Source: Candidatus Dormiibacterota bacterium
GTDB lineage: Bacteria; Chloroflexota; Dormibacteria; Aeolococcales; Aeolococcaceae
Direction of reading: 5' to 3'
Assembly (NCBI GenBank): GCA_963718525.1
Contig: OY970355.1
Location: 1,728,001-1,792,000, forward strand
DNA: 64,000 bases
Shown: one piece after another, positions 4,841 through 29,416 of the stretch
How the letters are laid out: each line of letters begins with the position of its first letter
Numbering within the stretch: the first letter of the stretch is position 1
The notes under the pieces: model-generated
What the model saw: the letters and a program-made list of their open reading frames with translations, nothing else
Told to the model about the DNA's origin: nothing
Database searches by the model: none
Position numbers and translations under genes: made by a program

Positions 4841-4963
4841 ACGGCGGCGCTGGGGCGGCCTGATACGGCGTCGGCTTTCGGTCCTCGTTCGGTCACGCAC
4901 TTAAGTGCGCTTCCTCTCTGCGGTCCGCGCCTCCTTGTCTCAGATTCGCCCCAGCGCCGCCGT
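4841..4963. repeat. long inverted-repeat element (REP/MITE-like), about 123 bp
   Basis: ACGGCGGCGCTGGGGCG (4841-4857) is the exact reverse complement of 4947-4963. Pairing extends inward imperfectly, and there is a central GCACTTAAGTGC palindrome. Confidence 0.7.
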
Positions 4964-5013: not shown

Positions 5014-6312
5014 ATGTCTTTGCGCGTTGCTATTGATCGGATGGTGGTTACGGGGCATCGGATCGATGTTCCGCTTGACTGGAATGAGCCTGCGGGTGCG
5101 CAGATCAGTGTTCATGCTCGCGAGGTTGTCGCGGCTGAGCATGTGGACGACGCGGCGCGTCCGGCGATCGTGTGGTTTCAGGGTGGTCCGGGACACGAGA
5201 TCGCGTTTCCCGATCATCGCGGGAGCTGGCTCGAACAACTGCTGACGCGGTACCGCGTGCTGCTGCTGGATCAACGTGGCACCGGGTTGAGCACGCCGCT
5301 CGAAGCGCGCTCCCTGCCCCGCTCTGATCCCGAGGCGCTCGGCGCCTTCCTGCGAAATTTTCGGCAGGACTCGATCGTGCGCGACGCGGATCGCCTGCGC
5401 GCGACGCTGTATGGCGAGGACTCCGACTGGTATGTCTTCGGACAGAGCTTCGGCGGCTTCTGCTCGCTCACGTATCTGTCGTATCTGCCGGAACACCTTC
5501 GCGGCGTGATCATCACCGGTGGCTTTGCCCCCGTGCTGCATGAGACCGAGGAGATCTGCACGCGGCTGTTCAACCATGTCGCGGCGCGCAACGCCGACTA
5601 CTACGCGCGGTTTCCCGGCGATGCCCAACGGGTGCGCCGGATTGTCGATCACCTCGATGCCGGCGACGAAGTGGACGGTCGGGGACAGCGTCTCAGTGCG
5701 CGCCGTTTTCTGATGCTGGGTGTGAAGCTGGGATTGCAACATGGGTTTGCCGAGCTGCACGGAATCATCGAGCGCGCGGACAACGATCTCGACCAGCTGC
5801 ATGTGCTCAGTGGTGTGGTTCATGAACATGTCGCGGGCGTGATGTCGCCGGCGACGAATCCGATCTACACGGTGTTGCACGAAGCGGCGTACTCCAACGG
5901 TCCTGCGACGCGATGGGCGGCGGAGCGAGCACGGCTCGCCGATCCCCGCTTTGCGCTCGATGCGCAGCCGGCGCCGTACTTCACAGGCGAGGCCGTGTTT
6001 CCGTGGATGCTGGAGGAGCTCCGAGACTTGCAACCGCTGCGCGAGGTTGCCGATGTGCTCGCGAACTACGATGACTGGTCGCCGCTGTATGACGTCGCCC
6101 GGTTGCGCGCGAATGCCGTTCCCGTCGTGGGGACGGTGTACTGGGACGATGAGTACGTGGAGCGCACCATGGCGGTCGAGACGGTCTCGATGCTCGGCAA
6201 CTGTCGTCCGTGGATCACGAATGAATACGAGCACGGCGCATATCGCGTCGACCCGGTGAGGGTTGCGGGTCGCCTGTTCTCGATGCTGGATGATCTGGCG
6301 TCGCAGGCGTAA
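5014..6312 (+). CDS. proline iminopeptidase-like alpha/beta hydrolase
   Basis: VPLDW, FQGGPG, LDQRGTGLSTP, FRQDSIVRD, GQSFGGFC, YWDDEYV and ITNEYEH motifs. Confidence 0.85.
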   Translation: MSLRVAIDRMVVTGHRIDVPLDWNEPAGAQISVHAREVVAAEHVDDAARPAIVWFQGGPGHEIAFPDHRGSWLEQLLTRYRVLLLDQRGTGLSTPLEARSLPRSDPEALGAFLRNFRQDSIVRDADRLRATLYGEDSDWYVFGQSFGGFCSLTYLSYLPEHLRGVIITGGFAPVLHETEEICTRLFNHVAARNADYYARFPGDAQRVRRIVDHLDAGDEVDGRGQRLSARRFLMLGVKLGLQHGFAELHGIIERADNDLDQLHVLSGVVHEHVAGVMSPATNPIYTVLHEAAYSNGPATRWAAERARLADPRFALDAQPAPYFTGEAVFPWMLEELRDLQPLREVADVLANYDDWSPLYDVARLRANAVPVVGTVYWDDEYVERTMAVETVSMLGNCRPWITNEYEHGAYRVDPVRVAGRLFSMLDDLASQA

Positions 6313-25579: not shown

Positions 25580-27159
25580 TGCACGGGGCCGCACCGACGG
25601 ATTACGACGTGGTGGTTGTCGGTAGCGGCATCGCAGGACTCTCAGCGGCACTCACGGCGGCGCCGGGCGCGCGTGTCGCGGTGGTGACCAAGGGCGCACT
25701 CGACGACGGGTGCAGCAGGTTTGCCCAGGGCGGGATCGCGGCCGCGGTCGGTGACGGCGACTCGCCGGAATTGCATTACGAGGACACCATCGCCGCCGGA
25801 CGCGGCCTCTGCCATCCTGATGCGGTGCGGGTGCTGGTCGAGGAAGGCCCTGCACGCATCCGCCAGCTGATCGAATGGGGAGTCGCCTTCGACACGCAGG
25901 ACGGTGAATTGCTGCTAGCGCAGGAGGCCGCGCACTCGCGTCCGCGCATTCTCCATGCGCGGGGCGACGCCACCGGCCTCGAGGTCGAGACTGCGCTGAT
26001 CCGCCGGCTGCGTGCCAGCAGCGCGAAGGTCATCGAACACGCCGACGTCACCAGGATCATCACCACGCCCGACGGCATCGGCTGCGGCGTGTCGATCACG
26101 ACGAACCCCTCCGAGTCGCATACCACCACGCTGACGTCAGCGGCGGTCGTGCTCGCGAGTGGTGGGGCGAGCCGTCTCTGGCGGAACAGCACCAACCCGG
26201 ACTCCGCCACCGGCGACGGCGTTGCCCTCGGATATGCGGCCGGCGCCGACGTCGCGGGCATGGAGTTCGCGCAGTTCCATCCGACGGCGCTTGCCATGGA
26301 CGGGGCGCCACGGTTTCTCATCAGTGAAGCCGTCCGCGGCGAGGGCGCGTGGATCGTCAACAGCGACGGCAGGCGCTTCGTGCTCGACGTCGATCCGCGC
26401 GGTGAGCTCGCCGGTCGCGACGTGGTGGCCCGCGCCATCTGGGACGAGTTGCAGCGCAGCGGCGAGCCCTGCGTCTTCCTCGACTGCGCGCCGCTCGGCG
26501 ATCGCGCCCCGGTTCGGTTTCCGACCATCGCGGCGACCTGCGCACGTTACGGCCTCGACATCACGCGTGAGCCGATCCCCGTCTCCCCGGCAGCGCACTA
26601 CATGATCGGCGGTGTCAGGACCGATCTCGATGGCGCGACCAGTGTCCCCGGACTGTATGCGTGCGGTGAAGTTGCGTACAGCGGCGTGCACGGCGCCAAC
26701 CGGCTGGCGAGCAACAGCCTGCTGGAGTCCTTGGTGTTCTCACACCGGGCGATGCACGCGGCGCTGGGATGGGCAGCGGAATCACCACCTGCTCACGCGG
26801 CGCCCACGCAGCGAACATCGAACTCGAGAGGTGCCGGCCTCGATCCTCGTGACGGCTGGAACACCCTGCGCGACACGCTCTGGACTGGAGCCGGCGTGGT
26901 TCGTGACGAACCCGGCCTGCGCGCCGCCGCGCGCGAGTGCGATGCGGTGGCCGTCGCCACCTCGGGAGCTACCACGCTGCCGGCCATGCAGCTGCACGCA
27001 GCCGCATCCACCGCATCGCTGGTGTGCACAGCCGCCCTGGCTCGCGAGGAGAGCCGTGGGTGCCACCTCCGTTCTGATCTCCCCCAAGCAAGCGATCAAT
27101 GGCATGGCGACCTCGTCATGCACAAGGACAGAGGAGCACGCTTTGACCGTCACCTTTAG
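25579..27159 (+). CDS. nadB: L-aspartate oxidase
   Basis: GSGIAGL, AQGGIAA, EAAHS..RILHA.GDATG, QFHPT, SEAVRGEG, AHYMIGG, GVHGANRLASNSLLE and ESRGCH. Confidence 0.93.
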   Translation: MHGAAPTDYDVVVVGSGIAGLSAALTAAPGARVAVVTKGALDDGCSRFAQGGIAAAVGDGDSPELHYEDTIAAGRGLCHPDAVRVLVEEGPARIRQLIEWGVAFDTQDGELLLAQEAAHSRPRILHARGDATGLEVETALIRRLRASSAKVIEHADVTRIITTPDGIGCGVSITTNPSESHTTTLTSAAVVLASGGASRLWRNSTNPDSATGDGVALGYAAGADVAGMEFAQFHPTALAMDGAPRFLISEAVRGEGAWIVNSDGRRFVLDVDPRGELAGRDVVARAIWDELQRSGEPCVFLDCAPLGDRAPVRFPTIAATCARYGLDITREPIPVSPAAHYMIGGVRTDLDGATSVPGLYACGEVAYSGVHGANRLASNSLLESLVFSHRAMHAALGWAAESPPAHAAPTQRTSNSRGAGLDPRDGWNTLRDTLWTGAGVVRDEPGLRAAARECDAVAVATSGATTLPAMQLHAAASTASLVCTAALAREESRGCHLRSDLPQASDQWHGDLVMHKDRGARFDRHL

Positions 27160-28009
27160 ACCCATCACCGAGGCGCTTTCGTCGGAGAGCATCGACCTGC
27201 TCATCGAGTCGGCGCTCGCCGAGGACGTCGGAGCTGGCGATGTCACGACCCAGGCCGTGATTCCGATGGATATGACCTGTCGAGGCAAGATCGTCTGCAA
27301 GCAGGACGGCGTGATCGCCGGCCTGAGCATCGCGCAGCGCGTGTTCCAGCGTGTCGATGAGCGGATTCAGTTCGATCCCAAAACCAAGGATGGCGAGAAG
27401 GTCCAGGCGGACCAGATCGTCGCGCGACTCTTCGGACCGGCTCGCGGCATGATGACCGCGGAGCGTGTCGGCCTCAACTTCCTGCAGCACCTGAGCGGGA
27501 TCGCGACCATGACCGCCAAGTACGTGAAGGCTGTCGACGGCACCAAGGCCAAGATCCTCGACACCCGCAAGACGACCCCTGGCCTGCGTGCCATCGAGAA
27601 GTACGCGACGCGCATGGGTGGCGCCGTCAACCATCGCATGGGGCTGTACGACGCGGTGCTGATCAAGGACACGCACCTCGCGCTCGTCGGCGGGATCACC
27701 CCGGCGCTCCGCGCGGCGCGCAAGGCGTACCCGGAGATGGAGATCCACGTCGAGGTCAGCAACCTCCAGGAGCTCGAGCAGGCGCTCGCGGACAAGGCCT
27801 CGCACATCCTCCTCGACAATTTCTCCTGCGGTCAGGTACGCGAGGCGATGCAGCTGATTCGCGGGCGTGCGACTGTCGAGGTGAGCGGTGGAGTCCAGGT
27901 GACCAATGCGCGTGCGTACGCGCTTGCCGGTGCCGACTACATCAGCGTTGGCGCGTTGACGCACTCGGCGGTGGCTCTGGACTTCAGCATGAAAGTAACT
28001 CGGTACTGA
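27143..28009 (+). CDS. nadC: nicotinate-nucleotide pyrophosphorylase (carboxylating)
   Basis: ALAEDVG.GDVTT, DTRKTTPG, NHRMGL.D, LIKDTH, LLDNF and ISVGALTHS; TTG start after AGAGGAG. Confidence 0.94.
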   Translation: MTVTFRPITEALSSESIDLLIESALAEDVGAGDVTTQAVIPMDMTCRGKIVCKQDGVIAGLSIAQRVFQRVDERIQFDPKTKDGEKVQADQIVARLFGPARGMMTAERVGLNFLQHLSGIATMTAKYVKAVDGTKAKILDTRKTTPGLRAIEKYATRMGGAVNHRMGLYDAVLIKDTHLALVGGITPALRAARKAYPEMEIHVEVSNLQELEQALADKASHILLDNFSCGQVREAMQLIRGRATVEVSGGVQVTNARAYALAGADYISVGALTHSAVALDFSMKVTRY

Positions 28010-28025
28010 ATCAAACGACTCTCGA

Positions 28026-28103
28026 GTGGGTCCTGTCACCGCGGGGACCCCTCGCCGCCGCGCTTTATGGCGCGTCGGCGCTGCCCCCCGCGGTGCCACC
28101 CAC
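28026..28103. repeat. REPIN-like long stem-loop element
   Basis: GTGGGT..CACCGCGGGG pairs with CCCCGCGGTG..ACCCAC; inner hairpin CGCCGCCGCGC-TTTATG-GCGCGTCGGCG; the left arm is itself GT followed by a GGGTCC...GGACCC palindrome. Confidence 0.65.
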
Positions 28104-28202
28104 CGGCTGTCTTGCTTCGGGCGCTCGTAGTGCGCGTTTCTCCGCTGGGTCGTTCCGCGTCCGGTGAGCGGTCTCTGAGCGTTTGACGGGTCCGTTTAAG
28201 TA

Positions 28203-28829
28203 ATGCCTACGGTTGTTGATGGGCCTACGGTTACGTTGCATGCGTTTGCGGTTTCGCATGCTTGGTTGACGCCGATTGTGATTGGGGTGACGGCGGCGTT
28301 CGTTTTCTTGTGTCCGATTCTCTTTGTGGTGGTTTGGGGGAGGGATCGGAGGCTGCGGCCGGGGGTTGCGGCGCTGTTGGGGCTGGCGTTGACGCAGTGG
28401 GCGGCGCATGAGGTGGGGAGGTTGTCGATCAGGCCGCGGCCGTTTGTGGCCATGCATTTCACGCCGCTGTTTCCGCATGCGGCGAACAATTCGTTTCCGT
28501 CAAGTACGACGGCATTCATCGCGGTCGCCGGGATCATTGGGGTGCTGGCGTGGCGGCGCCGGGGAGTGATCCTGGTGGTCGCCACGGCTGTTGTGGCGGT
28601 CGGGTGTGTGTATGTCGGGGTGCACTACGTGAGCGATGTGATCGTCGGCGCGGCGCTCGGGGCTACGTGCGGTGCGGTCACGTGGTTCGTGGCGGGGTTG
28701 CCGCCGGTGACGTGGGCGCTGAGCGCGGTGGAGCGGCGGTTTCCGCGACGGCAGCGTCGTGTCGAGGCGGCCGCGCCGGCCGATCCGCGCACTCGCGATC
28801 GGGTCGAAGTGCCTACAGGAGTGAGTTGA
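28203..28829 (+). CDS. PAP2-family membrane phosphatase-like protein (BcrC/undecaprenyl-PP phosphatase-like), degenerate motifs
   Basis: RPRPF, SFPSS (canonical SFPSGH) and CVYVGVHYVSDV (canonical RVY.GVHY.SD); several TMs. Confidence 0.75.
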   Translation: MPTVVDGPTVTLHAFAVSHAWLTPIVIGVTAAFVFLCPILFVVVWGRDRRLRPGVAALLGLALTQWAAHEVGRLSIRPRPFVAMHFTPLFPHAANNSFPSSTTAFIAVAGIIGVLAWRRRGVILVVATAVVAVGCVYVGVHYVSDVIVGAALGATCGAVTWFVAGLPPVTWALSAVERRFPRRQRRVEAAAPADPRTRDRVEVPTGVS

Positions 28830-29373
28830 CCAGCGCCTCGATCTGACTCAGTGACGCCGGTGTGGCTGTCGCTCCGATCGACACGAGGGTCGATCCCTTG
28901 GTGGCCACGACGCCCTCGTTGTCCTTGCCGGCGCCAAGCGTCACGTAGAAGGATGTCGCCTGGTCTCCCAGCCCCGAAACGCTCTTCACGCCCCCCGGGA
29001 AATTCTTGGTGAAATTGGAAATGATCGAGGGATTGATGTTGAGGAGCACCTCGATGATCACGTTTTCACTGGTTGTGTGGTAGTTGCATACCACGCCGGT
29101 CACACCGGCGGGCAGCTGCCCGCCGCCACCGCCAACGCCGGTCGCATTCGGGAGCGTGGTCCCCAGGGCTGATCCAACCGTCGCGCCCGTGGGGCACACC
29201 GCTGATGCCGCCGACGCGGTCGGCGTCGCCGCTGCCGAGGTCGGCGCTGCCGCAGTCGGCGTCGCGCCTGGTGCGGATGTCGTCGGGCTTGGCGTCGCAC
29301 TGCCGCAAGCTGCAAGCGTCGCTGCGAATGCCAGTGTGGTCAGCGGAATCCACCGCGACATGCTGCCTGTCAT
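28813..29373 (-). CDS. putative lipoprotein
   Basis: Lipobox LAAC after a hydrophobic signal, Ala/Thr/Pro linker, VSGLGDQA motif; SD GGAGGG. Confidence 0.75.
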   Translation of the reverse strand: MTGSMSRWIPLTTLAFAATLAACGSATPSPTTSAPGATPTAAAPTSAAATPTASAASAVCPTGATVGSALGTTLPNATGVGGGGGQLPAGVTGVVCNYHTTSENVIIEVLLNINPSIISNFTKNFPGGVKSVSGLGDQATSFYVTLGAGKDNEGVVATKGSTLVSIGATATPASLSQIEALVNSLL

Positions 29374-29416
29374 GTGGAATGCCCTCCATCTGCGATGTCG
29401 AGGCAGTGCCACCTTC

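Follow-up and report, generated by a model that had tools for sequence, protein, structure and literature searches.

Organization of the nadC-PAP2 locus

The locus lies in a 64,000-nucleotide stretch of DNA (the window, to which the five-digit coordinates refer) of a genome available as a single contig of 3,336,189 bases, with an estimated completeness of 88.9%, for which we used a home-made set of 2732 gene calls. It comprises the following features:

27113-28009, + strand: nadC, quinolinate phosphoribosyltransferase (Pfam QRPTase_C, 1.3e-57; QRPTase_N, 3.4e-22)
28026-28104, + strand: GC-rich stem-loop of a small palindromic repeat family, 17 nt past the nadC stop
28105-28202, + strand: non-coding spacer (A7 C26 G35 T30), strongly T>A, about 50% identity
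28203-28829, + strand: PAP2 gene, ORF with a PF01569 match
28203-28427, + strand: core of the keto tract, PAP2 codons 1-75, with G or T at 72/75 third positions
28428-28829, + strand: remainder of PAP2, with G or T at 94/133 third positions, bias weaker
28813-29412, - strand: convergent 199-aa ORF of ordinary composition (keto3 0.50), which bounds the skewed domain

The PAP2 ORF matches PF01569 over residues 55-163 (E 4.5e-15, 56 bits vs a gathering cut-off of 27.2); PAP2 is a small membrane phosphatase, and the host is an uncultured soil bacterium. The last 17 nt of the gene overlap the convergent ORF, for which no Pfam family was found. No sigma-70 consensus was found in the spacer in a simple promoter scan, and no Shine-Dalgarno-like motif was found in it or before PAP2 in any ortholog examined.

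A keto-biased tract at the start of PAP2

A sequence-only reading of this DNA had claimed that the first 32 codons of PAP2 are free of C- and A-ending codons and that C-ending codons return within the same gene. Both claims are confirmed by reading: codons 1-32 all end in G or T, the first C- or A-ending codon being codon 33 (TTC), and from about 28518 onward C-ending codons reappear. The third positions of codons 1-75, whose G+T share we call k75, are A0 C3 G51 T21, and those of the last 133 codons are A7 C32 G71 T23. The bias is stronger than had been reported, this being the most keto-skewed stretch of the genome. The absolute skew (G+T-A-C) is the largest of the whole genome at PAP2 in sliding windows of 300, 450 and 600 nt (0.42, 0.364 and 0.353, with genome standard deviations of 0.064, 0.056 and 0.051), and PAP2 ranks first among the 2732 genes both for keto3 (0.80, z 8.3) and for codons 1-75 (0.96, z 7.2; genome mean of keto third positions, 49%). 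Its 72/75 is attained by one of 776,321 75-codon windows, the runner-up having 61/75. Given the amino-acid sequence and the codon usage of the genome, 71 of 74 are observed in codons 1-75 where 34.3 would be expected, and none of 20,000 simulations exceeds 49; in the remainder of the gene 94/133 are observed vs 60.0 expected, and the corresponding share (krest, 0.707) is again the genome maximum. GC3 of PAP2 is 0.75 (genome mean, 0.81) and its codon-model score is low (16.7). In six genes k75 reaches 0.70 or more, and there is no amino-side counterpart among the 2732 genes (minimum k75 0.267, z -3.3). Other windows of extreme skew (842.6 kb, 2985.5 kb and 1186.4 kb) proved to be low-complexity coding repeats, of a different kind, and replication was rejected as the cause of the tract, the locus (1.756 Mb) being far from both the minimum (1.21 Mb) and the maximum (2.45 Mb) of the cumulative GC skew.

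The cumulative keto walk is flat until 28100, climbs to 28750 and is flat again, so that the skewed domain begins at the hairpin's 3' edge, ends some 80 nt short of the PAP2 stop codon and takes in the non-coding spacer. In fact, the T-A skew of the 100 nt upstream of PAP2 (0.62) exceeds that of all 922 other upstream regions. On the other side of the hairpin, the third positions of the last 75 nadC codons are of ordinary composition (A4 C30 G28 T13), and the skew in 150-nt bins runs from -0.11 to +0.07. The polarity proposed in the sequence-only reading holds, therefore, for the one-sided tract starting at the 3' edge of the hairpin, but the mirror G->A bias suspected in nadC is absent.

That reading had also described the bias as C->T plus A->G. 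At the four-fold sites of the tract (G36 T10 C1 A0), however, C is replaced by G and not by T, glycine codons have become GGG and not GGT, and the GGN and CGN boxes are shifted to G (0.84 and 0.95), far above the genome G:T ratio. Conversion of C to T and of A to G is thus too simple a description.

Assembled contigs from runs of three studies cover 28037-29400 (7 differences), 28302-28762 (2) and 27926-28342 (12) and contain the tract, which is therefore not the read or assembly artefact considered earlier. The seven strain differences listed inside the tract at contig level (T>G twice, C>G twice, G>A, G>C and G>T) are few, C->T and A->G are not dominant among them, and rare variants go unseen in contigs. 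Metatranscriptome contigs of one run (X20) reach over nadC to 28010, none over PAP2.

The hairpin element

Folded as DNA, the stem-loop has a predicted stability of -32.3 kcal/mol (z -3.79), which none of 200 shuffled sequences attains, and contains two invariant C-rich internal loops. Across 15 sequences, four of the 26 predicted pairs have both sides changed with pairing retained (for example CG to UA, in 6 of the 15) and the loop bases are unchanged; compensatory changes of this kind point to a structured nucleic-acid element under selection. Identity among the listed nadC-PAP2 copies of the genus is 92-97% for most and 81-97% overall. This genome carries three canonical copies and about six variants or partials, and 42 genomes of the genus yield 0-5 matches each at E <= 1e-8; no Rfam match was found.

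The claim that this is a repeated element is borne out by the three canonical copies and the conserved structure, whereas its supposed kinship with REP elements fares poorly. As in REP/BIME elements, we find an intergenic, GC-rich, imperfect palindrome that is repeated and often located at gene 3' ends or between convergent genes. Unlike them, the family is tiny, its copies keep orthologous sites across species instead of scattering, and no partner RAYT was found: the search for a Y1/HUH (RAYT-type, Y1_Tnp) gene with PF01797 at E <= 0.01 gave no match in the 3.34-Mb contig, the control search being positive in 6 of 14 known genomes. Between 27900 and 29500 there is no terminator-like site of the kind formed by a GC-rich stem and a T-run, the stem being followed by CCACCCACCGGCTG; this test covers the T-run type, and a U-less terminator would escape it.

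Orthologous loci in the genus

We compared 38 orthologous PAP2 loci of the genus, in 36 of which PAP2 is syntenic with nadC. Where the hairpin lies 83-241 nt upstream of PAP2 (22 loci), k75 is 0.69-0.96; it is 0.67-0.71 with a diverged variant at 75-83 nt (3 loci), 0.61-0.67 with the hairpin 444-699 nt away (2 loci) and 0.43-0.67 where the hairpin has long been absent (7 loci). The four loci with a decayed hairpin (L002, L005, L015 and L016) have k75 of 0.84-0.88; we do not take them as proof that the hairpin is unneeded, since their branches (0.026-0.073) are so short that the expected decay would be undetectable, and they are uninformative either way. The sole ortholog clade with neither hairpin nor bias also lacks the whole spacer (49 nt), so that an effect of the hairpin is inseparable from that of a promoter. 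The comparison with relatives lacking the element, put forward in the sequence-only reading, therefore gave a mixed answer: the bias is strong where a hairpin is adjacent and weak or lacking where the hairpin has long been gone, but the association is confounded with spacer loss and phylogeny.

The spacers of 14 hairpin-bearing loci have a pooled composition of A165 C432 G506 T399, and in a locus with a 241-nt spacer the hairpin-proximal half is already T>A (31:6). Between orthologs with less than 70% amino-acid identity, four-fold third bases agree at 0.633 vs 0.587 from composition alone. Agreement at silent sites is thus near that given by composition, yet k75 is 0.69-0.96 in the 22 hairpin-bearing loci, which shows the bias to be an equilibrium state and not a relic. 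It is old and is maintained in at least 26 species.

Hypervariability of PAP2 (58-89% amino-acid identity vs 97-99.7% for nadC in 19 loci of the genus) was rejected, as the downstream genes are equally diverged. The high identity of nadC arises because it is a constrained protein; its silent sites differ normally (0.199 per site), and a nuoF-like gene is 90-97% identical.

Other hairpin copies and other keto-biased genes

A copy of the hairpin family lies upstream of the nuoF-like gene, whose k75 is only 0.55; it is present in 20 of 28 orthologous loci, with k75 of 0.41-0.69 and a mean of 0.57 with the element vs 0.56 without it. Since this copy is equally old, the hairpin is not sufficient for the bias. 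The flanks of the remaining copies examined have no comparable coding-strand tract; where local + strand skews occur, reaching at most 0.31, the DNA is a low-complexity tail or the 3' end of a minus-strand gene, and the skew beside the copy at 2542827 comes from the Ala/Glu/Pro-rich tail of rpsP read in antisense.

Among all genes, a perfect stem of at least 10 bp upstream leaves k75 unchanged (0.488 for 250 genes with such a stem vs 0.487 for 2482 without); of the six genes that reach 0.70, three have one, vs 250 of 2732 overall. The outliers other than PAP2 are nth, an aminopeptidase-like gene, a VWA-like ORF and a large surface protein, which have no common function. At nth, which ranks 3-4 among the 2732 genes by k75, a second family copy lies 45 nt upstream; an upstream element is present in 25 of 30 nth loci, and the tract is always sense-oriented, regardless of the orientation of that element. 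In the aminopeptidase-like gene the bias tracks the clade and not an upstream inverted repeat (G002 has a 14-bp stem and k60 of 0.47), in a search limited to perfect stems, which misses imperfect ones.

Substitution pattern at silent sites

In the PAP2 5' tract of six independent sister pairs, 15 transitions are seen at 228 four-fold sites vs 18.5 expected from the rate in control genes, and 19 G<->T differences vs 3.3 expected (P 2e-9); these counts are small, and the controls may differ in history, nadC and PAP2 diverging discordantly in some pairs. The G<->T rate is 4-6 times that of control genes (5.8 times in the six pairs), and composition explains about 2-fold. By our own calculation, a pure-selection model giving the observed bias predicts about 4.5 transitions and about 7 G<->T differences, and a pure 30-fold drain predicts about 25-39 transitions. 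G<->T makes up 28 of 73 four-fold PAP2 differences in nine biased pairs vs 7 of 68 in five unbiased ones (Fisher p 1.6e-4), and G<->C makes up 18/73 vs 35/68. The differences per four-fold site are 0.216 in the 5' tract, 0.206 in the 3' part and 0.199 in nadC, and raised G<->T with an unchanged total rate is what G->C->T and T->A->G paths through a C->T/A->G drain would predict.

The 5'/3' ratio of keto<->amino differences, tested with clade-average bias, is 0.80 in biased and 0.92 in unbiased pairs, between the predictions of selection and drain and within about 1.5 sd of each. Parsimony polarisation (40 keto->amino vs 10 amino->keto in the tract) was left unused, because a composition of 87% keto and a saturated outgroup would give such a ratio at equilibrium. 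The unpolarised spectrum, with a normal transition rate and G<->T in excess, is compatible with a drain and is no proof of one. Unreduced silent turnover together with the G<->T excess argues against pure selection, and the pattern seems to fit a mutational component better.

Possible origin of the bias

The cause of the bias is unsettled, and we infer that a mechanism involving open DNA is the most likely. The reading we lean towards, tentatively and with rather less than even confidence, is that the non-template strand of the PAP2 unit has long been under a mutational regime that follows the transcript and turns amino into keto bases. The unit, taken with the limits of the skewed domain given above, would have undergone strand-asymmetric substitution over a long time, stripping the amino bases (C and A) from the coding, non-template strand. 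R-loops are reported to expose the non-template strand to deamination. While being transcribed, the promoter-proximal stretch of PAP2 may often stay open in a stalled open complex or an R-loop. A transcript that is rich in G, poor in C, poorly translated and devoid of a Shine-Dalgarno site would favour this, and on the displaced strand deamination and oxidation would then be more frequent than on the template strand, which is protected. A G-rich tract could promote further opening; such a self-reinforcing state would account for the small number of genes that reach the keto state and for their uniform sense orientation. As a terminator, an insulator or a protein site, the nadC-terminal hairpin would delimit the unit and perhaps help to trap the open state; it would not be a nick site that mutates its neighbour alone. 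Some mRNA-level selection may add to the mutational pressure.

The skew is oriented as transcription asymmetry would have it, being sense-oriented, with keto-side outliers only among the 2732 genes, and reaching into the spacer, which is at the top of 923 upstream regions. In its favour, too, the first 225 nt of PAP2 are not unusually unstructured, as 17.7% of 300 random genes fold less stably. Points against such a regime include the nature of PAP2, which one would not obviously expect to be heavily transcribed, the G preference in the GGN and CGN boxes, which goes beyond what deamination alone predicts, the number of transitions, lower than a pure 30-fold drain predicts, and the strain differences, in which C->T and A->G do not dominate. 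We consider quite unlikely the more specific proposal that the conserved structure at the end of nadC and the start of the next unit together set up a self-sustaining R-loop-like state, with strand-specific damage over about 650 bp at many times the genomic rate through evolutionary time. If true, a bacterial chromosome, here in Dormibacterota, would hold a polar mutational domain that is natural and programmed in cis.

Selection on mRNA or DNA composition, with C and A disfavoured in the 5' transcript and purifying selection at silent sites, is a somewhat unlikely alternative to this mutational regime; candidate reasons for it would be, for example, binding of a G/U-rich mRNA to the C-rich hairpin loops or to a protein, slow decoding of the N-terminus of a membrane protein, or avoidance of a C/A-dependent nuclease. 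Equilibrium of the bias in at least 26 species would suit it, as would the lack of a Shine-Dalgarno motif in the orthologs examined, the four-fold G:T ratio (36:10), which equals that of the genome (0.384:0.096) as though C and A were forbidden, and the further preference for GGG and CGG, which suggests a demand for G runs. The unreduced silent turnover, the transitions at control rate and the G<->T excess speak against it, as do the outlier genes without a common function and the skew of a spacer that is non-coding and only 50% conserved. The native 225-nt coding start is 17.6 kcal/mol less stable than synonymous recodings (-84.4 vs -102.0, sd 6.7), but its fold stability is ordinary among genes, and mRNA unfolding was rejected as the purpose. 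In other bacteria, those with runaway transcription, a coding-strand purine bias is selected to avoid Rho (PMC13323073). In both cases a constraint on the base content of the sense strand would shape codon choice; the bias described there is, however, genome-wide, purine (A+G) and Rho-dependent, whereas that of PAP2 is keto (G+T) and concerns one gene. Rho was not found in this genome (PF07497, no match; TIGR00767, best 37.6 bits vs a cut-off of 509), so Rho avoidance cannot be the selective agent.

We regard as improbable the mechanism advanced in the sequence-only reading, in which nicking, extrusion or polymerase stalling at the hairpin exposes the downstream + strand to distance-dependent deamination, independently of transcription. 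The polar tract at the hairpin and a mutational component are the parts of it that stand: the skew starts within about 50 nt of the hairpin 3' end, as the spacer of 241 nt also illustrates, k75 falls from loci with an adjacent hairpin to those where it is distant or long absent, and the nth copy and the upstream stems at three of the six most biased genes point the same way. Nicking is not supported, since no HUH/Y1 nuclease gene was found in the 3.34-Mb contig, and the other copies lack a comparable tract, the nuoF-like one included. The 250 genes with upstream stems show no shift in k75, the aminopeptidase-like gene follows its clade, the skew is one-sided although a palindrome offers both strands, and the unbiased clade that lost the hairpin lost the spacer too, which confounds the test. 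Lastly, acquisition of the gene from a donor whose codon usage differs, or an accident of statistics or assembly, could be invoked for the low codon-model score and GC3, but is highly improbable and already refuted as far as present data reach, given the synteny with nadC, the gradient within a single gene, the persistence of the bias with silent sites near saturation among species, the independent assemblies from three studies and a simulated probability below 1 in 20,000.

Relation to known systems

In vertebrate mitochondrial DNA there are deamination gradients, in which skew scales with the time spent single-stranded. PAP2 resembles them in the near-complete silent loss of two bases from one strand, with a positional gradient, but their cause is the replication of a whole small genome, whereas PAP2 is a single gene on a chromosome, remote from the origin and terminus as inferred from skew. 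Transcription-associated strand asymmetry has reportedly been described in enterobacteria by Francino and Ochman and by Beletskii and Bhagwat. In vertebrate genes, transcription leads to strand-specific substitution asymmetries with TA and GC skews and an excess of G+T on the non-template strand that is strongest near the transcription start (PMC2927911). The PAP2 tract is likewise sense-oriented (G>C, T>A), decays along the gene, includes non-coding DNA and belongs to a genome with keto-side outliers only. It differs in magnitude (96% vs a genome mean of 49% keto third positions), in its restriction to about 650 bp of one gene, with weaker tracts in about 5 others of 2732, in the gain of G rather than T at four-fold sites and in the raised G<->T turnover.

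Hairpin and G4 motifs (non-B DNA) promote Mfd-dependent, transcription-linked mutagenesis in Bacillus subtilis (PMC8231525, abstract), and the PAP2 locus would similarly pair a hairpin-forming motif, transcription and local mutagenesis in a bacterium. The B. subtilis case is, however, a laboratory reversion assay at the motif, and its abstract gives no evolutionary footprint or downstream polar tract (PMC8231525).

Bacterial strand asymmetries are as a rule weak and averaged over the genome, whereas PAP2 alone stands 7-8 standard deviations from its genome, in a state that is conserved across dozens of species and starts sharply at a conserved structure, with sister lineages that lost the bias as natural controls. 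The tract being extreme, conserved and bounded, the question of mutation versus selection in codon usage becomes directly testable on one 0.8-kb locus, as does the question whether bacterial genomes bear evolutionary footprints of R-loops or non-B DNA. Gene finders and detectors of horizontal gene transfer that rely on codon usage will misjudge such genes, as the caller score of only 16.7 for PAP2 illustrates.

The keto-rich tract of the PAP2 gene

The source genome, G000, is a single contig of 3,336,189 bases with 66% G+C (the window spans G000:C1:1728001-1792000), in which the PAP2 gene lies downstream of nadC and of a stem-loop, hereafter the hairpin.

Features around the PAP2 gene (window coordinates)
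27113-28009, + strand: nadC (Pfam QRPTase_N/C)
28026-28104: hairpin, GC-rich, 79 nt (DNA fold -32.3 kcal/mol, z -3.79, equalled by 0 of 200 shuffles)
Between hairpin and PAP2 gene: spacer, 98 nt
28203-28829, + strand: ORF of 208 codons, PAP2-family membrane protein (PF01569, E 4.5e-15)
28813-29412, minus strand: convergent ORF of 199 codons, sharing the last 17 nt of the PAP2 gene

An antisense ORF of 327 codons (27116-28099, minus strand), which spans all of nadC, starts inside the hairpin and was ranked above nadC by a naive codon-model caller, is probably the usual high-GC artefact.

Reading the sequence confirmed that none of the first 32 PAP2 codons ends in C or A, as had been claimed from the sequence alone. 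Third positions are A0 C3 G51 T21 in codons 1-75 and A7 C32 G71 T23 in the remaining 133. With the protein kept and codons drawn by genome usage, 34.3 keto (G- or T-ending) codons are expected in the 5' part, where 71 of 74 were observed (best of 20,000 draws, 49), and 60.0 in the remainder, where 94 of 133 were observed. Among 2732 rough gene calls (self-trained codon model, longest ORFs, uncertain starts), PAP2 ranks first for the G+T share of third positions (keto3), whether taken across the full gene (0.80; mean 0.475, sd 0.039), in codons 1-75 (k75, 0.96; mean 0.487, sd 0.066) or beyond codon 75 (0.707), and only one of 776,321 75-codon windows reaches 72 of 75, the runner-up having 61. 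A Shine-Dalgarno-like 4-mer at -20 to -4 precedes only 28% of these rough gene starts, against 15% in a control window.

The genome-wide sliding comparison likewise placed the locus first for absolute keto skew, with 0.42, 0.364 and 0.353 in 300-, 450- and 600-nt windows (genome-wide sd 0.064, 0.056 and 0.051). Cumulated along the sequence, keto skew stays level as far as 28100, rises steadily up to 28750 and levels off again, so that the skewed domain runs from the 3' edge of the hairpin through the non-coding spacer to just short of the gene end. In the 100 nt before the PAP2 start, T-A skew is 0.62; none of the other 922 upstream regions whose gap is 120 nt or more reaches this value (mean -0.02, sd 0.17). 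The mirror bias suspected at the end of nadC is absent: its last 75 codons have A4 C30 G28 T13, and bins left of the hairpin range from -0.11 to +0.07. An assembly artefact was ruled out, as contigs of runs from three studies carry the tract with 2-12 differences.

Distribution of the bias in the genus

PAP2 is present in 39 of the 41 other genus genomes (no match in G005 and G013), and 38 loci including that of G000 were analysed after partial hits in G054 and G049 were dropped.

Hairpin state and k75 at 38 PAP2 loci
Full hairpin 83-241 nt upstream: 22 loci, k75 0.69-0.96, mean 0.86
Hairpin recently decayed or deleted (L002, L005, L015, L016; short branches): 4 loci, k75 0.84-0.88
Diverged long variant at 75-83 nt: 3 loci, k75 0.67-0.71
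Element 444 or 699 nt away: 2 loci, k75 0.61-0.67 (at L020, the one examined, an extra ORF lies between element and PAP2)
No element: 7 loci, k75 0.43-0.67, mean 0.56 (the sister pair G002/G047 belongs here)

Where protein identity is below 70%, orthologs share the third base at 0.633 of four-fold sites, barely above the 0.587 expected from composition, which argues that the bias is continuously re-created in each lineage and not inherited as sequence. Judged from these orthologs, the keto bias is old and maintained.

Mutation and selection at silent sites

Since every transition swaps keto and amino (A/C) bases, mutation and selection models differ in the silent-site turnover that they predict. 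We compared six phylogenetically independent sister pairs, with other genes of the same genome pairs as controls; discordant divergence of nadC and PAP2 in some pairs, indicative of recombination between the two, limits this comparison.

Four-fold site differences in six sister pairs
PAP2 5' tract: 228 sites; 15 transitions, 19 G<->T, 15 other transversions
Control genes: 2014 sites; 163 transitions, 29 G<->T, 187 other transversions
Expected in tract at control rate: 18.5 transitions, 3.3 G<->T (P 2e-9), 21.2 other transversions

In a second set, restricted to 5' four-fold differences within PAP2 (nine independent pairs with the bias and five without it), G<->T accounts for 28 of 73 differences in biased against 7 of 68 in unbiased pairs (Fisher p 1.6e-4), G<->C for 18 of 73 against 35 of 68, and transitions for 25 of 73 against 21 of 68. 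Per four-fold site, the total rate of the 5' tract (0.216) matches those of the 3' part (0.206) and of nadC (0.199). By a back-of-envelope population-genetic calculation, the bias of G000 would need selection with 4Ns of about 3.4, for which roughly 4.5 transitions, 7 G<->T and 4.6 other transversions are predicted; under the average bias of the clade, the rate differences expected fall within 1-1.5 sd of the data, and counts are small. As total rates are equal and G<->T changes are 4-6 times too frequent for selection alone, the silent sites of the tract are not frozen and a mutational component seems to be needed, within the small counts. Under a pure 30-fold drain by C->T and A->G, about 25-39 transitions would be expected, against the 15 seen, and G->C and T->A events would soon be converted so as to appear as G->T and T->G. 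In 18 orthologs the GGN and CGN boxes shift to G (0.84 and 0.95) more than deamination predicts.

Tentatively, the reading that we find most plausible is that the PAP2 unit has long been subject, on its non-template strand, to sense-oriented substitution of keto for amino bases, a regime that would arise from frequent promoter-proximal opening. The promoter-proximal stretch would open often, in an R-loop-like state, and the opening would lead to amino-to-keto substitution on the non-template strand; the resulting transcript, G-rich and C-poor, may make the regime self-reinforcing. Mitochondrial DNA has single-strand deamination gradients, which the tract resembles in working. We know of nothing as local and extreme in bacterial chromosomes, and keyword searches of open-access text returned no description of a single-gene keto tract in bacteria. 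The tract also resembles transcription-associated strand asymmetry (PMC2927911).

Selection on composition seems to us unlikely as the explanation, though the nearest competitor. Particular selective accounts did badly: the 5' mRNA is not unusually unstructured, the outlier genes have no common function, and Rho was not detected in the whole of G000 (no PF07497 match; the best TIGR00767 score, 37.6 bits, lies below the cut-off of 509).

The hairpin family and its role

G000 holds three canonical 78-nt copies (1756026, 1998514 and 2542826) and about six longer or partial variants, and matches at E <= 1e-8 occur in 33 of 42 genus genomes (0-5 per genome). When 13 nadC-PAP2 copies were aligned with two further copies from G000, compensatory changes appeared at four of 26 pairs, and no base varied in two C-rich internal loops. 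Most nadC-PAP2 copies listed share 92-97% interspecies identity (81-97% over all listed), whereas the neighbouring spacer is only about 50% and PAP2 65-80% identical. Given these compensatory pairs, invariant loops and stronger conservation than the surroundings, the hairpin is a functional structured element, acting as either RNA or DNA. It matches no Rfam family, no T-run was found after the stem, and other copies tend toward gene ends or positions between convergent genes. The family does not form a REP/RAYT system, both defining features that were tested being absent.

The sequence-only reading had an HUH enzyme nick the hairpin and expose the + strand, with C->T and A->G changes in the neighbouring gene. 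We now consider this improbable and favour the transcript-oriented regime. The skew does begin at the hairpin edge, T already exceeds A in the hairpin-proximal half of a 241-nt spacer, and adjacent full hairpins go with high k75 across the 38 loci. That part of the ortholog comparison stood; the sole clean long-term loss, however, in the sister pair G002/G047, took the spacer too (only 49 nt separate nadC and PAP2), so that a hairpin effect is inseparable from loss of the gene's own promoter. A long, 134-nt variant of the family precedes nth (endonuclease III; G000:C1:2043996-2044929, L025/L029) by 45 nt, and the k75 of nth, 0.77, ranks 3-4 of 2732; the 5' part of nth is keto-biased in most of 30 orthologs (keto3 0.53-0.87 in codons 20-95 against 0.41-0.59 in the remainder), with an upstream element in 25. 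Yet the canonical copy at 1998514 is equally old (20 of 28 orthologous loci), and the nuoF-like gene 208 nt downstream has k75 0.55 (0.41-0.69 across loci; 0.57 with and 0.56 without the element). Beside the remaining copies there is no coding-strand tract of the PAP2 kind: + strand skews of 0.2-0.3 next to three copies fall within a low-complexity tail, a minus-strand gene at its 3' end, or nth itself.

Of the six genes with k75 >= 0.70, half are preceded by a perfect stem of 10 bp or more; such stems occur at 250 genes, 3 of them in this group, and the other 3 come from the 2482 genes that lack one. Mean k75, however, is 0.488 with and 0.487 without a stem (Mann-Whitney p 0.62). One of the three stems, a unique 17-bp perfect inverted repeat with an 89-nt loop (window 4841-4963), precedes an aminopeptidase-like gene (5014-6312) by about 50 nt. 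Of the first 60 codons of this gene, 83% end in G or T, and T is prominent (A1 C9 G26 T24); the corresponding share (k60) is 0.43-0.83 across 30 loci and tracks clade, not stem, G002 having 0.47 with a 14-bp stem. This k60 also correlates with PAP2 k75 (rho 0.77, 28 genomes, not phylogeny-corrected); the genes are about 23 kb apart. A search of the G000 contig found no Y1/HUH transposase gene, nor was there any other nuclease candidate. Our conclusion is that the hairpin does not suffice, is not demonstrably necessary, and is at most one ingredient of a configuration of structured element, spacer and first gene of a unit.

Foreign origin or chance is very improbable for a bias that is old and maintained, and the probability left by these four readings goes to causes that we have not thought of.

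Additional observations

In some pairs (L008/L122, L005/L121; window 27113-28829) nadC and PAP2 diverge discordantly, for example at 55 of 119 four-fold sites in nadC against 4 of 35 in the PAP2 5' part, a pattern suggestive of a recombination breakpoint between them, at the hairpin or close to it. Upstream of the nuoF-like gene (G000:C1:1998800; L059-L086), the best-scoring strand of the element differs between genomes, being + in some and minus in others, which reflects either flipping or near-palindromy. The long, Ala/Glu/Pro-rich C-terminal extension of ribosomal protein S16 (rpsP; G000:C1:2542775-2542903, minus strand) has two copies of the family, one full and one partial, within it or right at its end. 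Two further minus-strand genes of G000 are keto-biased, at G000:C1:785113-785646 (k75 0.81) and 373440-378050 (k75 0.77), with an upstream stem detected at neither.
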